A stretch of 43,746 nucleotides of DNA from Escherichia phage NicoleGrasset_Bas72. Both the position numbers and the translations under genes were made by a program. Below, piece after piece: positions 1,823 to 38,777 of the stretch. The DNA lies in the sequence record PQ850621.1. One strand, written 5' to 3'. The notes under the pieces are model-generated. The model did not search any database. It was not told where the DNA came from and was given only the letters and a program-made list of their open reading frames with translations. Numbering within the stretch: position 1 is the first letter of the stretch; the number at the start of each line of letters is the position of its first letter.

Positions 1823-3304
1823 ATGTTAACTATGAACGGTCAGAATCAGGGTGTTAAGACAAAACACCGGGAATGGCTGCATCACTTCGATAAATGGCAG
1901 AAGGTACGCCACGCTCTTGAAGGCGACCTTATCCGCTATCTGCGCAACGTCGGGAAGAACGAGCCTGACCAGACCTACGCAGCACAGCGACAGGAAGAAT
2001 ACGAGAACGGCGCTATCTGCTACAATTTCACCAAACGCACGCTGGCGGGGATGACGGGGTCAGTGATGCGCAAAGACCCTGAGCAGATTATCCCGCCTGA
2101 ACTTGAGTACCTGTTGCACAACGCTGACGGTTCAGGTGTCGGGCTGTGGCAGCACGCGCAGGATACGCTGATGGAGATTAACTCGATAGGCCGTGGCGGG
2201 TTGCTGGTGGACGCCCCGGAAACAGCCGCAGCAACGGCGGCAGAGCAGAACGCGGGATTATTAAACCCGGTAATCGCATTCTATACCGCGGAGAACATTA
2301 TCAACTGGAGACTCACCCGCATCGGTTCAGTGAACCGCGTGACGATGGTTGTATTGCGTGAGGCATGGGAATACTCGGAACCAGGCGCTGAGTTTGAAAC
2401 AAAATTCGGCGAGCAATACCGCGTCCTTGACCTGATTGACGGTCGCTACCGCCAGCGCATCTACCGCTTCGATGCCGAAGGTGGCGCACAGGATGAAGTA
2501 ATCGAAATCTTCCCGGAACTCGGCGAACAGTTGCGCGGTAAAATCCCGTTCACGTTCATTGGCGCAAGCAACAACGACGCCACTATAGACGATGCGCCTT
2601 TACTGCCGTTATCTGAGCTAAATATAGGACACTTCAGAAATTCGGCCGATGTGGAAGAGGCCAGCTTTATAGTAGGTCAACCGACACTGTTCATTGCCCC
2701 CGGCGAGAACATGAGCATGGAGCAGTGGAAAGAAGCCAACCCACACGGCATACGCATGGGGTCGCGTTCAGGCCACAACATCGGCTCCGGCGGAAATGCG
2801 TTTCTGGTTCAGGCGGCGGAAACTAACCTCGCCAAACAGAACATGCTGGATAAAGAGAATCAGGCCATCCAGATTGGCGCGCAGCTTATCACCCCGACGC
2901 AGCAAATCACCGCGGAATCGGCCCGCCTGCAACGCGGCGCCGACACGTCAGTCATGGCAACAATAGCACGTAATGTAAGCATGGCGTATACCGATGCGTT
3001 GCGCTGGGTTGCGGGTATGCTTGGGCTTAGTGAAGATACTGAGATTGAGTTCAAGCTGAATATGGAATTCTTCCTGCAACCTATGACAGCTCAGGACCGC
3101 GCTCAGTGGATGGCGGATATTAACGCTGGCCTGCTACCCGCCACCGCTTACTATGCTGCGTTGCGCAAGGCAGGTGTGACTGACTGGACAGATGAGGACA
3201 TTCAGAACGCTATTGAAGACGCACCTCTGCCGTTGGGTTCTGTTGCTCAGGTAGCGGGAGAGATTCCGCAGTCGGCGCAGCAACAGGACACCACTCAGCA
3301 GTAA
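1823..3304 (+). CDS. portal protein
   Basis: 493 aa ORF immediately after terminase, AAGAGG SD; acidic Q-rich C-terminus; canonical gene order. Confidence 0.7.
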   Translation: MLTMNGQNQGVKTKHREWLHHFDKWQKVRHALEGDLIRYLRNVGKNEPDQTYAAQRQEEYENGAICYNFTKRTLAGMTGSVMRKDPEQIIPPELEYLLHNADGSGVGLWQHAQDTLMEINSIGRGGLLVDAPETAAATAAEQNAGLLNPVIAFYTAENIINWRLTRIGSVNRVTMVVLREAWEYSEPGAEFETKFGEQYRVLDLIDGRYRQRIYRFDAEGGAQDEVIEIFPELGEQLRGKIPFTFIGASNNDATIDDAPLLPLSELNIGHFRNSADVEEASFIVGQPTLFIAPGENMSMEQWKEANPHGIRMGSRSGHNIGSGGNAFLVQAAETNLAKQNMLDKENQAIQIGAQLITPTQQITAESARLQRGADTSVMATIARNVSMAYTDALRWVAGMLGLSEDTEIEFKLNMEFFLQPMTAQDRAQWMADINAGLLPATAYYAALRKAGVTDWTDEDIQNAIEDAPLPLGSVAQVAGEIPQSAQQQDTTQQ

Positions 3305-3312
3305 GTTCACCT

Positions 3313-3336
3313 ATAGCCCCGAAAGGGGCTTTCTTA
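3313..3336 (+). terminator. hairpin plus short T-tract between portal and head-morphogenesis genes (attenuator-like)
   Basis: AGCCCC gaaa GGGGCT then TTCTT. Confidence 0.35.
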
Positions 3337-3340
3337 TAGT

Positions 3341-4417
3341 ATGCTATTAACTTTAGCGCCACAGGGTTTATCTATGAGCTTACTTACATCCCTAATCAGC
3401 CATCAGATATGGCTGCAACGCACCGCATCCGGTGAAGTGAAAGACCTCACGCCGTTCATTCAGGAGATAAGGGATGAAATCAAACGGCAGGTGCTGTTAT
3501 TCGGTGACGACGGTCGCAGCACTGCGCGACTGAATAAACTGTTACGCGACCTGGAAGAAGCACTAACCGGTATTACGGGTGACTGGCAAACAAAGCTAAC
3601 AGACGACCTTAAGGAACTGGCGGCGTACGAGGCTGAGTGGAACGTAAAGACACTGACCGCCAACGTAGACGCGGAATTTGTTACGCCTACCGCTGAGCAG
3701 GTATGGGCCGCTGCCGAGTTTCAACCATTATCATTGAGCGACAAGCCCGTTGATTTCACCAAGCTGATGTCTGGATGGGGCGAAACGGAAGTAGCACGTC
3801 TTGTAACTGGAGTTAAGATGGGCTTTGTGCAAGGTCAAACCACACGGCAGATTGTTAAGAATGTTGTTGGCGCTGGTGGACTAGCCGACATCTCAGAACG
3901 TAACGCGACTACGGTAATCCGCACCGCGCTGTCCCACGTATCCAACGAGGCCCGTAACGAGACGTACCGCCAGAACGACGACATCATCGAGAAGTACGAG
4001 TGGGTGTCAACGCTTGACAGCCGCACCAGTACGATTTGCAGGGTCAGAGACGGGATGACGTGGGAAATTGGTAAGGGGCCGATGCCCCCAGCCCATCCGA
4101 ACTGCCGGTCGTGCACGGCTCCGGTAATCAGTTCCGAGTTCGACTTCCTCGATAAAGGCGCAAAACGCGCGGCTAAAGGCGCGGAAGGTGGCACTCAGGT
4201 AAGCGCAGACACCACTTACTACGAGTTCCTTAAACAACAACCGGCGTGGTTTCAGGACCAGGCGCTCGGCCCGGTGCGAGGTAAGATTTTCCGTAACAGC
4301 GGTATATCGCCGGAAGAGTTTCGCGTAATATCTGTAGATGGTTTCGGGAATCCGCTCACGCTTAAGCAGATGGCGGAACTCGATAAACGTGTTGCTGATT
4401 ATCTGAAAGGGGAATAA
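3341..4417 (+). CDS. head morphogenesis protein (Mu F / SPP1 gp7-like)
   Basis: 358 aa ORF after portal; canonical position; family assignment from memory of this module, not from a search. Confidence 0.6.
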   Translation: MLLTLAPQGLSMSLLTSLISHQIWLQRTASGEVKDLTPFIQEIRDEIKRQVLLFGDDGRSTARLNKLLRDLEEALTGITGDWQTKLTDDLKELAAYEAEWNVKTLTANVDAEFVTPTAEQVWAAAEFQPLSLSDKPVDFTKLMSGWGETEVARLVTGVKMGFVQGQTTRQIVKNVVGAGGLADISERNATTVIRTALSHVSNEARNETYRQNDDIIEKYEWVSTLDSRTSTICRVRDGMTWEIGKGPMPPAHPNCRSCTAPVISSEFDFLDKGAKRAAKGAEGGTQVSADTTYYEFLKQQPAWFQDQALGPVRGKIFRNSGISPEEFRVISVDGFGNPLTLKQMAELDKRVADYLKGE

Positions 4418-4878
4418 TGATGGGCTTTTTCAAAGTAACTGACGTACCGTCTCGTCGCGTAGTCCAGTACGCCCGCGTGTCTGGCTCTGGCGAGAACGTG
4501 GTATTTATTGAGGACGAAAGTGTACTCGGTACACCGGTAGATGATATGCCGTTTGCAGATAAAACCGGTATTGCGTTGCCCGCCGCCGGTATGCTTTATG
4601 AAATTCCGTATCTGGCGGACGCTGGCGACGTGTATTTCTCTGCGCAACCGCAGGACGCTGAACTGGCGGGCGGCAGCGCAACCATCACTGTCGAGGTTAA
4701 GGCAGGCAAAGCGCCGTATTCTCTGACCTGGTACAAAGACGGTAAGGAAGTGGTGAATGCGCCTGAGGAGGCTCTGTCTCTGACGGTTAATGCGGTCGGC
4801 GAATACTTCGTTAAAGTTACTGATGCCGATGGAGTAGAGGCGGTAAGCAAAGCGGCGAAGGTTACTAAGCCAGAATGA
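4417..4878 (+). CDS. Ig-like domain protein (head-associated)
   Basis: ATGA overlap with upstream gene; C-terminal segment PYSLTWYKDGKEV...GEYFVKVTDADG resembles Ig-like (Big/I-set) fold and is paralogous to 8190-8540. Confidence 0.55.
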   Translation: MMGFFKVTDVPSRRVVQYARVSGSGENVVFIEDESVLGTPVDDMPFADKTGIALPAAGMLYEIPYLADAGDVYFSAQPQDAELAGGSATITVEVKAGKAPYSLTWYKDGKEVVNAPEEALSLTVNAVGEYFVKVTDADGVEAVSKAAKVTKPE

Positions 4879-4880
4879 TA

Positions 4881-4909
4881 AAAGGCCCCATTATGGGGCC
4901 TTAGTTTTC
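4881..4909. terminator. rho-independent terminator, likely bidirectional
   Basis: AGGCCCCA tta TGGGGCCT then TAGTTTT; A-run on the other side; between convergent genes. Confidence 0.6.
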
Positions 4910-5111
4910 AACGGAATCTTGTGTTTAAATCCTGCTCATGGACAACCCTCAGAACAGTGTCATAATCCCCGTATCTTCCAGGTTCAAATATATCTAATGC
5001 CTTGTAAGCAGACATTGCGTCAGGGAAAACCTGCAGAACCTTTTTAACCCGGCACAAGTCACCGTCGAACTCTTCATCGAACTCTTGAACTACTTCGCAA
5101 ATTGCATACAT
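4908..5111 (-). CDS. hypothetical protein, 67 aa, acidic
   Basis: ATG with AGGAGGTG SD; sits between bidirectional terminator 4881-4909 and minus-strand promoter 5139-5167. Confidence 0.5.
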   Translation of the reverse strand: MYAICEVVQEFDEEFDGDLCRVKKVLQVFPDAMSAYKALDIFEPGRYGDYDTVLRVVHEQDLNTRFR

Positions 5112-5138
5112 TTTTCACCTCCTGTTTAAGTTAACTGA

Positions 5139-5167
5139 ATAGTACCCTATTATATTGGGGTGTGCAA
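5139..5167 (-). promoter_or_regulatory. promoter, TTGCAC-N17-TACTAT family
   Basis: On minus strand: TTGCAC, 17-nt spacer accccaatataataggg, TACTAT; drives 4908-5111. Confidence 0.55.
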
Positions 5168-5242
5168 ACTATTTATTTACGTATTCCATTTATTCCACTA
5201 AATTGTAAATATTGGAATAAACTATTCGAATAGTTGACTTTT

Positions 5243-5271
5243 CACTGAAAATGTGCTAAGCTCCACCTGAG
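5243..5271 (+). promoter_or_regulatory. promoter candidate TTGACT-N17-TAAGCT overlapped by a 16-bp palindrome
   Basis: -35 TTGACT at 5243-5248, -10 TAAGCT at 5266-5271; palindrome AACTATTCGAATAGTT at 5229-5244 overlaps the -35. Confidence 0.35.
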
Positions 5272-5439
5272 CTTGTGAAGTATGAACAAGCGACCGCGGC
5301 GCGGGCAGGTAACGGAGCGGGACGTAAGTCCTGAGTGTAGTTACGCTGACGCGTTCGGAAGGGCCATACTCTATTGCTTGTGTAAAAAGTAACAGGTTTA
5401 CTTAGATTACGCCGTTTCTATGTTTAAATGATAAGGACT

Positions 5440-5470
5440 AGCGCCCTGCTTTAAGGCAGGGCTTTACTTA
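5440..5470 (+). terminator. terminator-like hairpin upstream of the spanin genes
   Basis: GCCCTGC tttaag GCAGGGC then TTTACTTA. Confidence 0.4.
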
Positions 5471-5486
5471 TCGAGAAAGGAGAAAC

Positions 5487-5873
5487 ATGAATCTTAAAGC
5501 AACTGTCGTAGCGGGAGCATGTTTCATCATCCTGGCTTACACACACGGCATCTACCAGTACCGCATCGGCTGGAACGAAGGCCGGGCGAATCTCGTTTCT
5601 CAGCAACAGCAGAAAGCACAGGCCGAGATGACTAAGAAAACACAACGGCAGCAGCAGGACGAATCAAAGGCCGCAGCCGCTGACAACGAAGGCAAGACGA
5701 AATCAGAGGTGATCACCCGTGAAGTCGTTAAGTACATTAAAACGCCTGGTCGCAGCGGGTGCACTTTTGACCCTGAGCGCGTGCAGCTCAAGTCCCGCGC
5801 CGTCGCAAACGCTAATTCCATTACCGGATACGACGATGATGCAGCCTCCGTGCAAACTGGCAGCGCCAAGTAG
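5487..5873 (+). CDS. putative i-spanin (Rz-like)
   Basis: AAGGAG SD; N-terminal TM segment ATVVAGACFIILAYTHGIY followed by Q/K/E-rich coiled-coil-like periplasmic region; contains an embedded lipoprotein ORF in another frame. Confidence 0.6.
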   Translation: MNLKATVVAGACFIILAYTHGIYQYRIGWNEGRANLVSQQQQKAQAEMTKKTQRQQQDESKAAAADNEGKTKSEVITREVVKYIKTPGRSGCTFDPERVQLKSRAVANANSITGYDDDAASVQTGSAK

Positions 5874-6064: not shown

Positions 6065-6766
6065 ATGAATCGTTTTTTACGTTATCCGTTCCAGGAAGAA
6101 GCTGGGGCAGAAGATAAAGCTGGTGGCGGTGACGCGCCGAAAATGTTCACCGCTGAAGAAGTTCAGGCGCTGATTGAGAAAGAAGTTGCCGGGCTTAAGG
6201 CTAATCAGGAAGCATTGTTGGCGGAGAAGAAAGAAGCCGCTCGCAAAGCAAAAGAGGCCGAAGAAGAACGGCAGCGCGCGCACCAGGAGGCGTTAAAAGC
6301 CGCTGGTAAGATGGATGAGTTCGAAAAGACGATTCGTAGCCAGTATGACCCGGTGTTAGCCGAGAAAGACGGTCGCATCTCCAGAATGGCAGAGCGTATC
6401 CTCGGCAGCGAACGTAAAGCGGTGCTAGGCTCTTTCGCGGGTGACTTTATTACCCCAGAAGCAGTGGACATTCTTGCGCCGTTCGTTAAGACTGAGTTCG
6501 AAGGCGATGATGTGGTTACTAAGTTTGTTGGTGCAGACGGTAACGTAATCACGACTGACCCGGAACAGTTCCGCAAATACCTGCGCGAACACAAGGCGTT
6601 TTCGCATTTGATCAAAGCAAATGCAGCTTCCGGCGGCGGGGCTTCCGGTAGCAAAGGCGGCGGGGCCGCACCAGCGTTTAAAGACATGAGTGAAGCAGAG
6701 CGTTTAGCCCTGTATAAATCGAACCCTGCCGAATTTGAACGGCAACTTAAAGCCCTGAGGAAATAA
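6065..6766 (+). CDS. putative capsid scaffolding protein
   Basis: A/E/K-rich helical sequence (EALLAEKKEAARKAKEAEEERQRAHQEALKAAGK) directly upstream of major capsid gene; first in-frame ATG is at 6065. Confidence 0.6.
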   Translation: MNRFLRYPFQEEAGAEDKAGGGDAPKMFTAEEVQALIEKEVAGLKANQEALLAEKKEAARKAKEAEEERQRAHQEALKAAGKMDEFEKTIRSQYDPVLAEKDGRISRMAERILGSERKAVLGSFAGDFITPEAVDILAPFVKTEFEGDDVVTKFVGADGNVITTDPEQFRKYLREHKAFSHLIKANAASGGGASGSKGGGAAPAFKDMSEAERLALYKSNPAEFERQLKALRK

Positions 6767-9274: not shown

Positions 9275-9889
9275 ATGGCGAAGACTAAATCAGAGATATT
9301 CACGCTAATCGGTTCCGAGCTACCGGACAACACGACCGGACTTATTACGCCTGCGAAGTTGCGCGGGGTATTAACCCAGATGGCTGACTCACCTATTTAC
9401 GCCACTCCGGGTGTTAAAGAGGTTGAAGTTCTCCGCGCTGCGTCGACAGTAGCGCAAGCGCCTACCGCAGTAGATACGGCGTTGCAGGTATCGTTCGGCT
9501 CTGCTCAGGGTAGTGCATCTGACCCGGTAATGATTAATGCTGCGGGGCTGGTTACATTCAACACCGCGGGTAACTATGCCGTTCGCATCAAGTTACAGGC
9601 CGGTCGCTCCGGCGCTAGCGGAACGTCTATCCTGTTGTCGCGTATCCTCATTAACGGCGCTCAGTACGGCTCACCAGCAGCTACGAAACTTGTTAGCTCG
9701 GAAACCACCATCCCTATTGAATCCCGTGTAGTGATTAACCCAACCGCCGGGCAAACATTCGCCGTTCAGATTATGCGAGATAGCGCCGGGACTAACTTCG
9801 GAGGCGTATACCCGCAGGTGGCTACTGTAACTGCATGGGGCACGGCACCGTCCGCGCTACTGGTTATTTCGAGACTGGAGGCTGCCTGA
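9275..9889 (+). CDS. structural protein (head-tail joining region)
   Basis: 204 aa ORF, 2-nt gap from upstream gene, co-oriented structural operon. Confidence 0.5.
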   Translation: MAKTKSEIFTLIGSELPDNTTGLITPAKLRGVLTQMADSPIYATPGVKEVEVLRAASTVAQAPTAVDTALQVSFGSAQGSASDPVMINAAGLVTFNTAGNYAVRIKLQAGRSGASGTSILLSRILINGAQYGSPAATKLVSSETTIPIESRVVINPTAGQTFAVQIMRDSAGTNFGGVYPQVATVTAWGTAPSALLVISRLEAA

Positions 9890-10248
9890 TGAGCACTGCT
9901 TTCAGTAAACGTATGCAAGGCGTGGGTACACGCCTGCTAACCAAATTCGGTAGCACGGTATCTCTGATTCGCGCTGGCTCGAAAGTGTGGGATGAAGTTC
10001 TCGGTGAGTACGTCTGGTCTGCGGACGAAGTGTTGCCGTTGAAGGCCGTTCCGGTTCCTGTTAATGCGGGTCTGGTGAACGGTACGACGATTCAGGCTGG
10101 TGACATGATTGTTAAAGCCGATTACAGCGTCGTTCCTAAGATGGAAGACAAAGTGCAATTCGGCGGCGAGCAATGGTCCGTCGTAGCCATTGAGAAGAAG
10201 GTGGTTAACGATGATGTTGTGGCCTACTTTATTCAGGTGAGAAAATGA
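9889..10248 (+). CDS. structural protein (head-tail joining region)
   Basis: ATGA start/stop overlap, GGAGG SD. Confidence 0.5.
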   Translation: MSTAFSKRMQGVGTRLLTKFGSTVSLIRAGSKVWDEVLGEYVWSADEVLPLKAVPVPVNAGLVNGTTIQAGDMIVKADYSVVPKMEDKVQFGGEQWSVVAIEKKVVNDDVVAYFIQVRK

Positions 10249-10745
10249 GTTTCGCGCTGGACGTCTCTAAGTTCGTGGAAAAGGCGAAGAAGAACCCAGA
10301 GAAGGTGATGCGTCAGGTGTCTATCAAGCTGTTTTCCGCTATTATAAAGGCGAGTCCGGTAGATACAGGCCGATTCCGAATGAACTGGATGGCCTCTGGC
10401 AGTACCCCCGCTTCCGGTACAAGCCGCGGTACTGACCCTAGCGGGGCGAACGCAATAAGTGCCATGGTTTCTACCGTGTCTGGTTTACCCGACTGGAGCG
10501 AGTTCACCCTGACAAATAATCTGCCGTATGCGGAAGTTATAGAGTTCGGGGGTTACGCTACCGGCTTCCATGGCCCTAAGCGTCCTTCTAACTTAGGCTC
10601 TAAATTTGTTGGCCCATTGAGGCCGAAAGCGCCCAGCAGAACAACCACAGACGGATATTCCCTTCAGGCTCCGCAAGGTGTTGTCCGGGTTAACGTTCAG
10701 CGATTCAATAAACTGCTCGAAGAAGAAGCGAGGAAGTATAAATAA
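10245..10745 (+). CDS. structural protein (tail completion region)
   Basis: 4-nt overlap with upstream gene; 166 aa. Confidence 0.5.
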   Translation: MSFALDVSKFVEKAKKNPEKVMRQVSIKLFSAIIKASPVDTGRFRMNWMASGSTPASGTSRGTDPSGANAISAMVSTVSGLPDWSEFTLTNNLPYAEVIEFGGYATGFHGPKRPSNLGSKFVGPLRPKAPSRTTTDGYSLQAPQGVVRVNVQRFNKLLEEEARKYK

Positions 10746-12328: not shown

Positions 12329-12356
12329 ACTAAGGCCCCTTTCGGGGCCTTTTTCT
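12329..12356. terminator. bidirectional rho-independent terminator
   Basis: AGGCCCC tttc GGGGCCT then TTTTT; convergent genes on both sides. Confidence 0.75.
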
Positions 12357-12586
12357 CACTCATCAATATTACTTCGATACTCCCGTAACTTCTCCAGACT
12401 TTCAATTGCTTCTGCTAAGTCGGTTCCGGTGTCCTTATGCCCGCGAAGACCCATGCACAATAACTTCTTCAATGCGTGCTGTAGTGCGGGGTCACGGATG
12501 TCGAAGGCACGGAGAACATCGTAAACGTCTACGGTCATAGTGCTGCCGTGAGTGTTTGTCATTGTTCGGTTGTATTTTGAAGTCAT
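12356..12586 (-). CDS. hypothetical protein (76 aa)
   Basis: Last gene of minus-strand cassette; start overlaps stop of 12583-13713. Confidence 0.45.
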   Translation of the reverse strand: MTSKYNRTMTNTHGSTMTVDVYDVLRAFDIRDPALQHALKKLLCMGLRGHKDTGTDLAEAIESLEKLREYRSNIDE

Positions 12587-13713
12587 CCCAGCATCTCCGG
12601 TGAAATAGTTAAACGTGCGACCTCGCCATATTCGGCGCTATAAGTAATTACATTTGCACTACGGCCTGACATCCACCCGCCGCGGGAGGCATAGGCGTCT
12701 TTAGCCGCTAAGGTGCGGTGTTGCTCAACAATCATGTTACGGCTTTCTACAATCTTCTGGTGGTGCAGGTGGCCTACGTGGGCGTAGCTATAGACACTCT
12801 CACCGAACGCTTTGCGGAATTTGGCAATCATAACCGGTTCGATAGCATCGAATCGCGCCTTATGCCCGTGGTGAAAGAACAACGTCGTTTTTCCGTGTTG
12901 CACCATCTTGTAAACATCCGGCGACGTATCGACAATCACTCGGCTGTCGTTCGAATATAAAACTGTGAACATTTCAGCCAGCCATACAGAGCCTACAGGG
13001 TCATGGTTCCCCTGTACGATAAGCAAGCGAACATTTTTATGTTTAACCAGTGCCATATCTACAACACGGCGTACCATACGAATCATGTAGCGGACGAGTT
13101 TCTGGTAGCGAGTGTCTGCGTCCAACACGTGACGCGACTCAGGTGTAACGGCATCCAGACTATCGAAGTGCGCGAAATCACCCAGCAGGTTAATAACTCC
13201 TGTTCCTGCATCCGGTGCTTTCTGAAACGCCGCGTCGAACCAACGAGAGAACAGGTCTTCCGCAATCTTTATATCCCAGTCGTCGCCGCTCTCGTCGGCC
13301 CAGGCAAGCATACCGAGATGGAAATCAGATACCGTGTAAAGATTGAGTAGCTTGTCGTCGCGTTTGGCTCGAGTCGCTTTAGCCGGCGCAACTGGCGTAA
13401 TCTCTGACTTCATGCCTTCAATCACGGCTTTCATCAACTCGACCTGACGTTCAGCGTCGGTGTCTGTCTTAACCCATTGCAACTTAGTATTGCCGAACTC
13501 GTCTACCAGAGACGACGTCCCTTTAATCTTGTAGCCGTCTGGGACAAGGTGGCTAACGTCACGCCCGTGGCCTACACCTTTCTTAGCCAGCTTCGCTTTA
13601 CGGATACGAATAACTCGGTCTGAGATGCCGTATTTACGGGCGATGTCTACATTCTTCATCCCGGCGTTCAATTCTTCCTGTAACTGTTCGTCGGTTATTT
13701 TCTTCTGGGCCAT
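12583..13713 (-). CDS. HTH domain fused to calcineurin-like metallophosphoesterase
   Basis: Metallophosphoesterase motifs visible in order: SDFHLG (D-x-H), GDFAHFD (GD), GNHD, HHGH, GHLHH; N-terminal HTH-like segment VDIARKYGISDRVIRIRKAKL. Confidence 0.7.
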   Translation of the reverse strand: MAQKKITDEQLQEELNAGMKNVDIARKYGISDRVIRIRKAKLAKKGVGHGRDVSHLVPDGYKIKGTSSLVDEFGNTKLQWVKTDTDAERQVELMKAVIEGMKSEITPVAPAKATRAKRDDKLLNLYTVSDFHLGMLAWADESGDDWDIKIAEDLFSRWFDAAFQKAPDAGTGVINLLGDFAHFDSLDAVTPESRHVLDADTRYQKLVRYMIRMVRRVVDMALVKHKNVRLLIVQGNHDPVGSVWLAEMFTVLYSNDSRVIVDTSPDVYKMVQHGKTTLFFHHGHKARFDAIEPVMIAKFRKAFGESVYSYAHVGHLHHQKIVESRNMIVEQHRTLAAKDAYASRGGWMSGRSANVITYSAEYGEVARLTISPEMLG

Positions 13714-13778
13714 GCTTACTTCCTCGTGTTTAGGATTTGTCCTATTTAACCACAGTGGATTCCTTTAAATAAAGGCAA

Positions 13779-14105
13779 CTATTTACTTTCTGCGCCTATC
13801 GCCCACCCTGTCATTACCATTTGCAGACGGGTGGCTGTCAGTAGGCTATAGAAAGCATCTCCGTTTTTCTCTACCGAACGTATCACTGTGTAGGTTACGG
13901 CCTGCGGGGGTAGGCCCGATTTACCAACCTCCACGGCGGCCTCACACTCGCGAACTGTAGAGTCCTTGAACGCCTTTACAATAGTAGGGTCGGCTTTATC
14001 AAGCACACCAGAAGTCATAAGAACAGATTCACTAAATACCTGTTCGCACGGGGCTCCAAAAGTAGCAAAAGACATAAACCCCAGAGCTAATACTAATTTA
14101 CGCAT
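13779..14105 (-). CDS. small secreted protein (signal peptide)
   Basis: N-terminus MRKLVLALGFMSFATFGA is a signal-peptide-like n/h/c region; first gene downstream of promoter 14134-14162. Confidence 0.55.
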   Translation of the reverse strand: MRKLVLALGFMSFATFGAPCEQVFSESVLMTSGVLDKADPTIVKAFKDSTVRECEAAVEVGKSGLPPQAVTYTVIRSVEKNGDAFYSLLTATRLQMVMTGWAIGAESK

Positions 14106-14133
14106 AATTATACCCTCAGTAAGTTACTGGTGA

Positions 14134-14162
14134 ATAGTACCCTATTATATTGGGGCGCGCAA
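14134..14162 (-). promoter_or_regulatory. promoter, TTGCGC-N17-TACTAT family
   Basis: On minus strand: TTGCGC, spacer gccccaatataataggg, TACTAT; drives cassette 13779-14105 onward. Confidence 0.55.
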
Positions 14163-14269
14163 GTAGTGTGTTAGAATAAGTTTGCGCCTAGTGTCGCACA
14201 CGAAAAGCGGGTGGTTCCCGCCTGGCGCATTAACCATAACCAGTAACCTCTTAACCAAAGGACTAAAGA

Positions 14270-33928: not shown

Positions 33929-33957
33929 ACTATAATAGCGAACTATTCACATGTCAA
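33929..33957 (-). promoter_or_regulatory. sigma70-like promoter TTGACA-N17-TATAGT
   Basis: On minus strand; upstream of acidic-protein gene 33397-33897. Confidence 0.6.
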
Positions 33958-33961
33958 TGGG

Positions 33962-33990
33962 CTTTTCTAAAATAATTAATATGGTACTAT
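33962..33990 (+). promoter_or_regulatory. weak promoter candidate for HTH regulator gene
   Basis: TACTAT -10 at 33985-33990 with AT-rich upstream region; -35 poor (CTTTTC). Confidence 0.3.
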
Positions 33991-37574: not shown

Positions 37575-37603
37575 TTGCACACCCCAACATAATAGGATAC
37601 TAT
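37575..37603 (+). promoter_or_regulatory. promoter, TTGCAC-N17-TACTAT family
   Basis: TTGCAC, spacer accccaacataatagga, TACTAT; about 35 nt upstream of gene at 37638. Confidence 0.55.
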
Positions 37604-37637
37604 TCACTTATCGAAACGAGACAGAGGAGTGAGGGTT

Positions 37638-37829
37638 ATGTTTAAGAAGGGTCAGTTGGTTAAAACTAAACGCGGAGGGCAATATGTATTAGTGTTGCAG
37701 GACGAGAGCGAGTATGACGAGGATAATCTGGTTGACGTATGGGGTCTGGTAAGAAAGAAAACTGGGTTCGCCTCCCGCGATAATTTAGAACTCATCGGCA
37801 ACAATTTTAAATTCAAAGGGACGAAGTGA
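37638..37829 (+). CDS. small early protein
   Basis: GAGGAG SD 8 nt before ATG 37638; downstream of promoter 37575-37603. Confidence 0.5.
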   Translation: MFKKGQLVKTKRGGQYVLVLQDESEYDEDNLVDVWGLVRKKTGFASRDNLELIGNNFKFKGTK

Positions 37830-38748: not shown

Positions 38749-38777
38749 TTGCACACTAATATAGAATAGGCTACTAT
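38749..38777 (+). promoter_or_regulatory. promoter, TTGCAC-N17-TACTAT family
   Basis: TTGCAC, spacer actaatatagaataggc, TACTAT; upstream of 38809. Confidence 0.5.

Follow-up and report, generated by a model that had tools for sequence, protein, structure and literature searches.

A conserved antisense gene cassette in the tail module of a Kagunavirus, with an exchangeable first gene and a predicted DNA-binding metallophosphoesterase at its core

Mre11/SbcD and the proofreading exonuclease DP1 of archaeal PolD form the nuclease clade of the binuclear metallophosphoesterases (MPEs). In the mycobacteriophage A10ZJ24 the MPE gp48 degrades host DNA and is needed to overcome Mycobacterium tuberculosis defences (PMC12287305). 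An MPE of Pseudomonas putida is reported to be a Mn-dependent endonuclease on single-stranded DNA that is encoded in a conserved DNA repair operon and leaves some 3'-phosphate ends (PMC7826289). Here we describe a phage gene that joins an MPE domain to a helix-turn-helix (HTH) motif. The window, 43,746 nt of Escherichia phage NicoleGrasset_Bas72 (PQ850621.1), is an essentially complete Kagunavirus genome (subfamily Guernseyvirinae). The gene is the second of three minus-strand genes, hereafter the cassette, in the tail module:

13779-14105, minus strand: 108-aa gene, first gene of the cassette
12583-13713, minus strand: HTH-metallophosphoesterase gene, 376 aa, second gene of the cassette
12356-12586, minus strand: 76-aa gene, third gene of the cassette

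The three open reading frames (ORFs) listed in the earlier note are all present. In pairwise comparison with relatives, the 76-aa gene has dN/dS values of 0.01-0.05, the MPE gene of 0.04-0.07 and the 108-aa gene of 0.035-0.087. Because the ratios lie between 0.01 and 0.09, these are real genes under strong purifying selection and not chance ORFs. The left flank is the tail tube protein (PF18906, E 5e-38) and the right flank is the tail assembly chaperone pair (PF08748/PF23812), followed by the tape measure gene, in agreement with the placement between a putative major tail gene and the tail chaperone. The cassette has its own promoter-like element and terminator, and the description of an autonomous opposite-strand unit in the tail module holds.

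We lean towards the view that the cassette is a conserved Guernseyvirinae operon composed of an exclusion-slot gene, an HTH-MPE nuclease core and a coupled 76-aa gene. The operon would run leftward, antisense between the tail tube and tail assembly chaperone genes, from a sigma-70-like promoter of phage consensus TTGCRC-17-TACTAT common to two other small-gene units, and transcription would end at a hairpin that also terminates the tail tube transcript. The slot behind the promoter would hold one envelope-targeted gene, here for an exported helical protein of 108 aa with two cysteines that are presumably disulfide-bonded. Judged from its position, this protein would most likely exclude superinfecting phages at the periplasm or inner membrane. 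The HTH-MPE would most likely cut or trim DNA during infection, in host-DNA breakdown, nucleotide salvage or recombinational processing, and the 76-aa protein would probably be made by translational coupling to the nuclease-like gene.

The closest relative, Escherichia phage AnnaReinhart_Bas75, is 99.7% identical across the 4.2 kb around the cassette. Many other Kagunavirus genomes show 89-97% identity, and 452 phage records match the 4.2-kb region. Nine distinct Guernseyvirinae cassettes were compared for synteny, given here from promoter to terminator:

Analysed genome and Bas75: 108 aa, MPE, 76 aa
K1H: 108 aa, MPE, HAD phosphatase, P-loop protein
590B: 108 aa, MPE (intact, unannotated), HNH, 76 aa
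Sciku: Imm, MPE, 66 aa, 76 aa, 57 aa
PVP-SE2: Imm, MPE, 76 aa, Rha/ANT
Jersey UPWr_S1: Imm, MPE, HNH, 76 aa, Rha/ANT
Jersey NC_021777: 109 aa, MPE, 76 aa, anti-repressor
ZCSE9: 109 aa, MPE, HNH, 76 aa, DNA-binding protein
Pantoea AH01: 114-aa distant homologue of the 108-aa protein (phrog_14165, E 3.6e-5), MPE, 161-aa protein

The MPE gene is found in all nine cassettes and the 76-aa gene in seven, and the position of the locus is the same throughout. The first slot always holds exactly one gene, of the 108-aa type in six cassettes and Imm in three. The cassette is thus an old and fixed trait of the subfamily, built around a core enzyme, and variation is limited to its edges. The earlier note had asked whether the cassette is variable among relatives; its edges are, while its position and the MPE gene are constant. 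The same note would have dropped its accessory reading for a cassette conserved in all relatives with a documented role in virion assembly or replication; the position and the MPE gene are conserved in nine of nine, and no assembly or replication role is documented.

The orientation against the surrounding genes, the own promoter and terminator, and the HNH homing endonuclease genes inside the cassette of some relatives could point to a recently acquired mobile insertion. However, the unit occupies the same position in Kagunavirus, Jerseyvirus and Pantoea phage AH01, and dS in pairwise comparisons of the cassette genes reaches 2.4, a value found for the MPE gene. The GC content of 0.49-0.51 is near that of the flanks (about 0.50-0.56), the GC skew, negative like that of the other minus-strand block, agrees with the coding strand, and the cassette is without integrase, transposase or flanking repeat. 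Recent mobile acquisition is highly improbable, and the term accessory insertion does not fit the locus. The locus is ordinary: the gene combination, which the earlier note could not assign to a described system, already carries annotations in hundreds of GenBank records, among them ORF15-18 of K1H. A link to the restriction of Bas74-76 by cryptic prophages of K-12 was considered and rejected. Bas70, 71 and 73 (unrestricted) and Bas75 and 76 (restricted) carry the same cassette, and since the unrestricted phages have these genes too, the cassette does not explain the need of Bas74-76 for prophage-free K-12.

The boundaries of the first slot are sharp in the alignment. The sequences are homologous from the chaperone gene across the promoter as far as 14130, which is also where homology to relatives with Imm as first gene starts; homology is then lost and comes back about 40 bp before the start codon of the MPE gene. 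The downstream edge of the slot was defined from the alignment:

13714-13751, minus strand: conserved leader and ribosome-binding-site block before the MPE gene, downstream edge of the swap slot

Homology of the analysed genome, K1H and Sciku (AH01 partly) resumes at ...TAAATAGGACAAATCCTAAACACGAGGAAGTAAGC-ATG whichever gene fills the slot. The alternative slot gene of the relatives encodes a homologue of T4 Imm (PF14373, E 2e-15), and tblastn connects it to the imm genes of T-even phages. About 350 records carry the Imm type at an identity of at least 60%. The 108-aa protein matches 98 phage records and 22 clusters, all of them Guernseyvirinae phages or phage-sized contigs of about 40-45 kb. 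The two counts together come close to the roughly 450-480 Guernseyvirinae records with the same flanks. No Imm homologue is found anywhere in the analysed genome.

The N-terminus of the 108-aa protein reads M-RK-LVLALGFMSFATFG/APCE (that is, MRKLVLALGFMSFATFG/APCE), with high hydropathy over residues 1-17. Read heuristically, it has all parts of a signal peptide: a basic n-region, a hydrophobic h-region and a cleavage site with small residues, without a lipobox. The lipobox is excluded because a proline stands at position -1 before C20. Residues P19, C20, E21 and C54 are invariant. The AF2 model (pLDDT 79) is an all-helical bundle, in which residues 1-16 are disordered and of low confidence. 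For four members of the family no Pfam match, PF14373 included, was obtained even at E<=10. One GenBank record labels a homologue as DUF3718; we rejected this label, as the 108-aa protein and three homologues match no Pfam family at E<=10.

The 108-aa gene replaces imm one for one in the same slot behind the same promoter, and on this ground the protein is read as a functional analogue of Imm; by this analogy it is a plausible superinfection-exclusion factor. The exclusion function that the earlier note had offered for the whole cassette is thus reasonable for its first gene only. Alternatively, the exported protein could serve the phage's own cycle in the envelope, in lysis timing, in protection of progeny from readsorption or in a change of surface glycans. 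It is exported according to the prediction, small and restricted to the glycan-dependent Guernseyvirinae, and other envelope genes (Rz-like spanins) are also placed in the structural module of the genome. Yet an own-cycle role sits poorly with the one-for-one alternation with a T4 Imm homologue. In addition, neither slot alternative is universal, so that the slot carries no essential function. We consider such a role unlikely and prefer the exclusion reading for this gene.

The 376-aa product of the core gene is composed of an N-terminal LuxR/GerE-like HTH (residues about 8-44), a linker of a beta-hairpin and a helix (61-102) and a binuclear metallophosphoesterase domain (119-376). It belongs to phrog_704 (E 1.5e-162), with homologues in 2036 phage records that include Guernseyvirinae, Drexlerviridae with T1, and Klebsiella, Vibrio, Rhizobium, Roseobacter and Campylobacter phages. 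With clustering at 50% identity, 4567 clusters match with E<=1e-3 and 1129 with E<=1e-30, and most best matches are near full length. The five metal-binding motifs of the superfamily (DxH, GD, GNH(D/E), H and GHxH) are intact as D130-x-H132, G178-D179, G235-N236-H237-D238, H282 and G314-H315-x-H317. Among 62 homologues with 32-49% identity, D130, H132, G178-D179, N236-H237, H282, G314 and H317 are invariant. The AF2 model has a pLDDT of 91.9 and shows a three-helix HTH at the N-terminus, the beta-hairpin and helix domain, and the MPE domain, which in the predicted structure is the alpha/beta sandwich of the MPE fold. Its best structural neighbours are DNA nucleases of the DP1/Mre11/SbcD class. 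The N-terminal profile matches the GerE/LuxR HTH weakly (E 0.02). A direct sequence search of the PDB gave nothing significant, and the profile search gave marginal matches only, to GerE, SbcD and MPE entries. The fold, the intact motifs, the HTH and the neighbouring nucleotide-processing enzymes of some relatives make a DNA-binding nuclease the most likely function. We also tried gp19 of phiEB49 as a structural analogue and rejected it; it sits in a replication region, and this context is uninformative.

Free-standing HNH genes lie directly downstream of the MPE gene in at least five sampled genomes from several unrelated lineages (coordinates of the compared stretches):

6207-6689: HNH gene after the MPE gene, T1
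5241-5750: HNH gene after the MPE gene, Vibrio phage
4681-5172: HNH gene after the MPE gene, Jersey UPWr_S1
3101-3571: HNH gene after the MPE gene, 590B
2095-2595: HNH gene after the MPE gene, ZCSE9

This recurrence suggests that the conserved MPE gene is a repeated homing target. In phage 590B (MW722821) the intact MPE gene, an ORF of 393 codons with 91% identity at 3574-4698 of the compared stretch, is missing from the GenBank annotation.

Several observations weigh against the proposed operon of exclusion gene and nuclease. The Pfam MPE models score below their gathering cut-offs (PF00149 17.0 versus 21.5, PF12850 22.1 versus 27); because the family is too divergent for the curated models, fold and motifs decide its membership in the superfamily. 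No Rad50/SbcC-like partner is annotated in the near-identical Bas75 genome or in any sampled cassette. The MPE gene lies outside the tail module in T1 and in a Vibrio phage, so its location in the tail module is a Guernseyvirinae trait and gives no functional clue. Neither in sequence nor in fold does the 108-aa protein resemble Imm or any known exclusion protein, and its proposed equivalence to Imm comes from position. The sole available Kagunavirus transcriptome, that of K1B4, sorts genes into coarse time classes and counts the slot gene (gene 045, Imm) as 'late' (PMC12645636), which at this coarseness neither supports nor excludes early expression. With these points counted, the conserved operon is still the account that we favour somewhat. 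A broader proposal is that the 108-aa protein (phrog_14165) may represent a new periplasmic exclusion class interchangeable with inner-membrane T4 Imm, and that the HTH-MPE may be a phage-specific, self-targeting DNA nuclease family of more than 1000 clusters with a possible role in host-chromosome breakdown. We advance this proposal tentatively and hold it to be rather doubtful.

In cassettes of the K1H type, a PNKP-type HAD 3'-phosphatase (PF25109, E 7e-20) and a P-loop protein resembling dNMP kinases (phrog_139, E 3e-46) follow directly after the MPE. In K1H these two genes lie at 2857-3896 of the compared stretch and replace the 76-aa gene. The grouping of MPE, HAD and P-loop proteins fits DNA end-processing or nucleotide salvage. 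It also gives a reason to consider the MPE as an end-healing enzyme, a 2',3'-cyclic phosphodiesterase/phosphatase for the repair of RNA or DNA attacked by host anticodon nucleases or nicking toxins, with K1H carrying the fuller pathway. Bacterial Pnkp is reported to have an MPE as its own phosphatase module (PMC2190708, PMC3675462). A full PNKP-type set of kinase, phosphatase and ligase was looked for, but the analysed genome is without the HAD and P-loop genes of K1H and has no annotated ligase. The P-loop protein matches dNMP kinase and not polynucleotide kinase, and the best structural neighbours of the MPE are DNA nucleases as noted above. End healing is decidedly less probable than a nuclease that cuts or trims DNA.

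The Metis defence system consists of a calcineurin-like protein, MisA, and a HAD protein, MisB, and senses m6dAMP from genome degradation (bioRxiv 10.1101/2025.11.05.686725). The pairing of MPE and HAD in K1H mirrors this gene content. It is conceivable that the phage HAD of the K1H-type cassettes acts in counter-defence.

A further alternative takes the whole cassette for an anti-defence island, in which the MPE disables host immunity, either by shredding the host chromosome and thereby keeping defence genes unexpressed or by hydrolysing nucleotide second messengers, and the small proteins inhibit defences. The need of A10ZJ24 for gp48 against M. tuberculosis defences (PMC12287305) is a precedent, the promoter is common to other small-gene units typical of host-takeover regions, and the K1H variant adds a HAD phosphatase beside the MPE. 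Against this, gp48, with D10 as its first motif residue, has no N-terminal HTH and is related at the superfamily level only. A DNA-binding HTH also speaks against a small molecule as substrate. The MPE belongs to the core genes of phages with very different hosts, unlike typical anti-defence genes with their fast turnover. The 108-aa protein, if exported as predicted, cannot meet cytoplasmic defence systems. The PADLOC-DB 2.0 defence models gave no match to the three cassette proteins at E<=0.1, nor did the NCBIfam library match the cassette proteins. In BASEL phenotyping these phages are highly sensitive to restriction-modification systems and variably sensitive to Old. We give an anti-defence island a low probability, and a core nuclease with an exclusion gene in front of it is preferred.

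The start codon of the 76-aa gene overlaps the stop codon of the MPE gene (ATGA, 12583-12586), and the two are probably translationally coupled, as read from this overlap. The 76-aa protein occurs in 767 phage records (phrog_2452, E 2e-36) with the conserved core motif VDVYDVLxAFxVxxPAxQHAxKKxLCxGLRGHKD. The family is usually stand-alone, with 60-125 aa; in Seuratvirus and Obolenskvirus it is the C-terminal domain of proteins of about 185 aa, which in Seuratvirus lie inside the deazaguanine gene cluster. The protein has no Pfam, NCBIfam or PDB match. Two identities were tried and rejected. As a truncated remnant of the K1H P-loop protein it shows no protein similarity and only a forced DNA alignment; moreover, the common form is that of 76 aa, which is strongly constrained. 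As a DUF3310-like domain it gave no Pfam match for 23 family members even at E<=10, and no PDB sequence match.

The regulatory elements of the cassette and their copies in the genome are as follows:

12332-12351, both strands: bidirectional intrinsic terminator hairpin, ending the tail tube transcript (plus) and the cassette (minus)
14130-14162, minus strand: putative 33-bp promoter element, TTGCGC(-35)-17 bp-TACTAT(-10)-TCAC, cassette copy
5135-5167, minus strand: second copy of the 33-bp element, upstream of the 67-aa ORF 4908-5111 (minus)
37575-37607, plus strand: third copy of the 33-bp element, upstream of the 63-aa ORF 37638-37829
14163-14269, no strand assigned: conserved divergent intergenic region between the cassette promoter and the chaperone gene

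The terminator hairpin, AAGGCCCC-GAAA-GGGGCCTT, has an 8-bp stem with six GC pairs, a GAAA loop and a T-run on either side. Its folding energy is -15.4 kcal/mol on the plus strand and -19.7 kcal/mol on the minus strand, with z-scores of -4.5 and -4.6. The records of Sciku and PVP-SE2 annotate the equivalent hairpin as a terminator on both strands. The bidirectional terminator that had been placed at 12329-12356 is thus borne out as a strong hairpin in both directions.

The promoter that had been noted at 14134-14162 is TTGCGC-17 bp-TACTAT. It scores only 7/12 against the sigma-70 consensus, and for this reason a promoter scan did not list it. The best-scoring candidate of the scan, TTCACC-16-TATAAT at 14134-14107 (10/12), was rejected; its -10 element ends 1 nt before the ATG and it is not conserved in K1H or Sciku. 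The 33-bp element TTGCRCRCCCCAAYATAATAGGRTACTATTCAC has three copies in the genome at no more than one mismatch, versus 0 expected, and 22-30 nt after the end of every copy there follow a Shine-Dalgarno sequence and a start codon. K1H, 590B and Sciku match the pattern exactly at the cassette position, and Jerseyvirus has TTGCAT-17-TATTAT at the equivalent position. Since it is repeated three times before start codons and conserved at the cassette position in relatives, the element is, at the level of sequence, a conserved regulatory element; the proposal of an own promoter stands in this form, with a weak match to sigma-70. The element core ATAATAGGRTACTAT occurs seven times at no more than two mismatches, versus 0.04 expected, with the looser copies at 3336-3350 (minus), 33932-33946, 33976-33990 and 38763-38777 (all plus). 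A 5-bp inverted repeat, AATAG-N4-CTATT, spans the -10 region in the core. The repeated element may be a phage-specific class of promoter or operator.

The divergent intergenic region contains a hairpin at 14207-14221 (GCGGG-AACCA-CCCGC), after which the minus strand continues with TTTT (14203-14206). Four of five aligned phages (the analysed genome, K1H, Sciku and PVP-SE2, of Kagunavirus and Jerseyvirus) have identical hairpin bases, and the fifth, Pantoea phage AH01, differs by one compensatory pair (CCGGG/CCCGG). Taken by itself, the fold energy does not reach significance (z -1.45). The hairpin could be a minus-strand terminator or a part of the leader of the rightward chaperone and tape-measure transcript. 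A 30-aa ORF at 14145-14237 (minus), annotated in Bas75 as Bas75_0025, overlaps both the promoter element and this hairpin and is unlikely to be a gene. The Sciku Imm gene, annotated with a start too far upstream, spans the same DNA.

The layout of the genome was carried over from the Bas75 annotation:

0-24.5 kb, plus strand: packaging, head and tail genes
24.5-37 kb, minus strand: replication genes
37-43.7 kb, plus strand: small genes and lysis genes

The structural block is not otherwise uniformly plus-strand, as had been stated, because the 67-aa ORF at 4908-5111 forms a second minus-strand island in the head region. It encodes an acidic protein (pI 4.5, phrog_27256, E 4e-4) and lies between a Hoc-like decoration gene and Rz-like spanin genes, in a local GC dip of 0.416. 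The 63-aa ORF behind the third copy of the element belongs to phrog_12538. The genome is 124 bp shorter than Bas75, and the coordinates are offset by 128 bp from the neck-gene region onward (9835-10248, Bas75 9889-10376). In this region a single ORF of 137 aa stands in place of the two genes annotated in Bas75.

The slot offers a natural experiment: in about 450 closely related virulent phages, the gene behind a conserved promoter is either a T4 Imm homologue or an unrelated protein predicted to be exported. Study of the 108-aa protein might reveal a new exclusion mechanism in siphophages that depend on O-antigen or capsule and are under development for therapy and synthetic biology. Few uncharacterised enzymes of T1-like, Jersey-like and Webervirus-type phages are as widespread as the HTH-MPE, and whether it degrades host DNA matters for the risk of transduction and for defence systems that detect genome degradation. 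The repeated 33-bp element gives a handle on the transcription programme of Kagunavirus.

Among known systems, Mre11/SbcD and DP1 are the closest fold class of the phage MPE, at an identity of only 12-18%. Unlike them, the phage protein is without an evident capping domain and has no Rad50/SbcC or polymerase partner annotated in the genome, and the N-terminal HTH and beta-hairpin domain is found in the phage family only. A10ZJ24 gp48 is likewise a phage-encoded MPE, itself a nuclease on DNA that acts on the host chromosome (PMC12287305); however, it is much shorter and comes from another phage lineage and host. The P. putida enzyme resembles the proposed nuclease as an MPE endonuclease that is reported to stand alone without a Rad50 partner (PMC7826289), and a third-party annotation names a 94%-identical homologue of the phage MPE (P0101) after it. 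T4 Imm and its family PF14373 fill the slot of the 108-aa gene in relatives, and both proteins are small and envelope-targeted. T4 Imm is a short hydrophobic membrane protein, whereas the 108-aa protein has a signal-peptide-like N-terminus and a soluble helical domain with two conserved cysteines, and the two share no sequence or fold relationship. As in the morons and accessory swap slots of tailed phages, one gene behind its own promoter is exchanged among close relatives while its neighbours are undisturbed. Unlike morons, the slot is the first cistron of a conserved operon and not a free-standing unit of promoter, gene and terminator, and the phage is virulent. The direct homologues are ORF15-18 of K1H and the equivalents in Bas70-76, Jersey, SETP3 and PVP-SE2, with the same position and a common promoter element and terminator. 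In these Guernseyvirinae relatives the MPE is 54-100% identical. The K1H 108-aa protein is 98% identical, and K1H differs by its HAD phosphatase and P-loop protein instead of the 76-aa gene. Many relatives differ by Imm in place of the 108-aa gene, and some carry added HNH or Rha/ANT genes.

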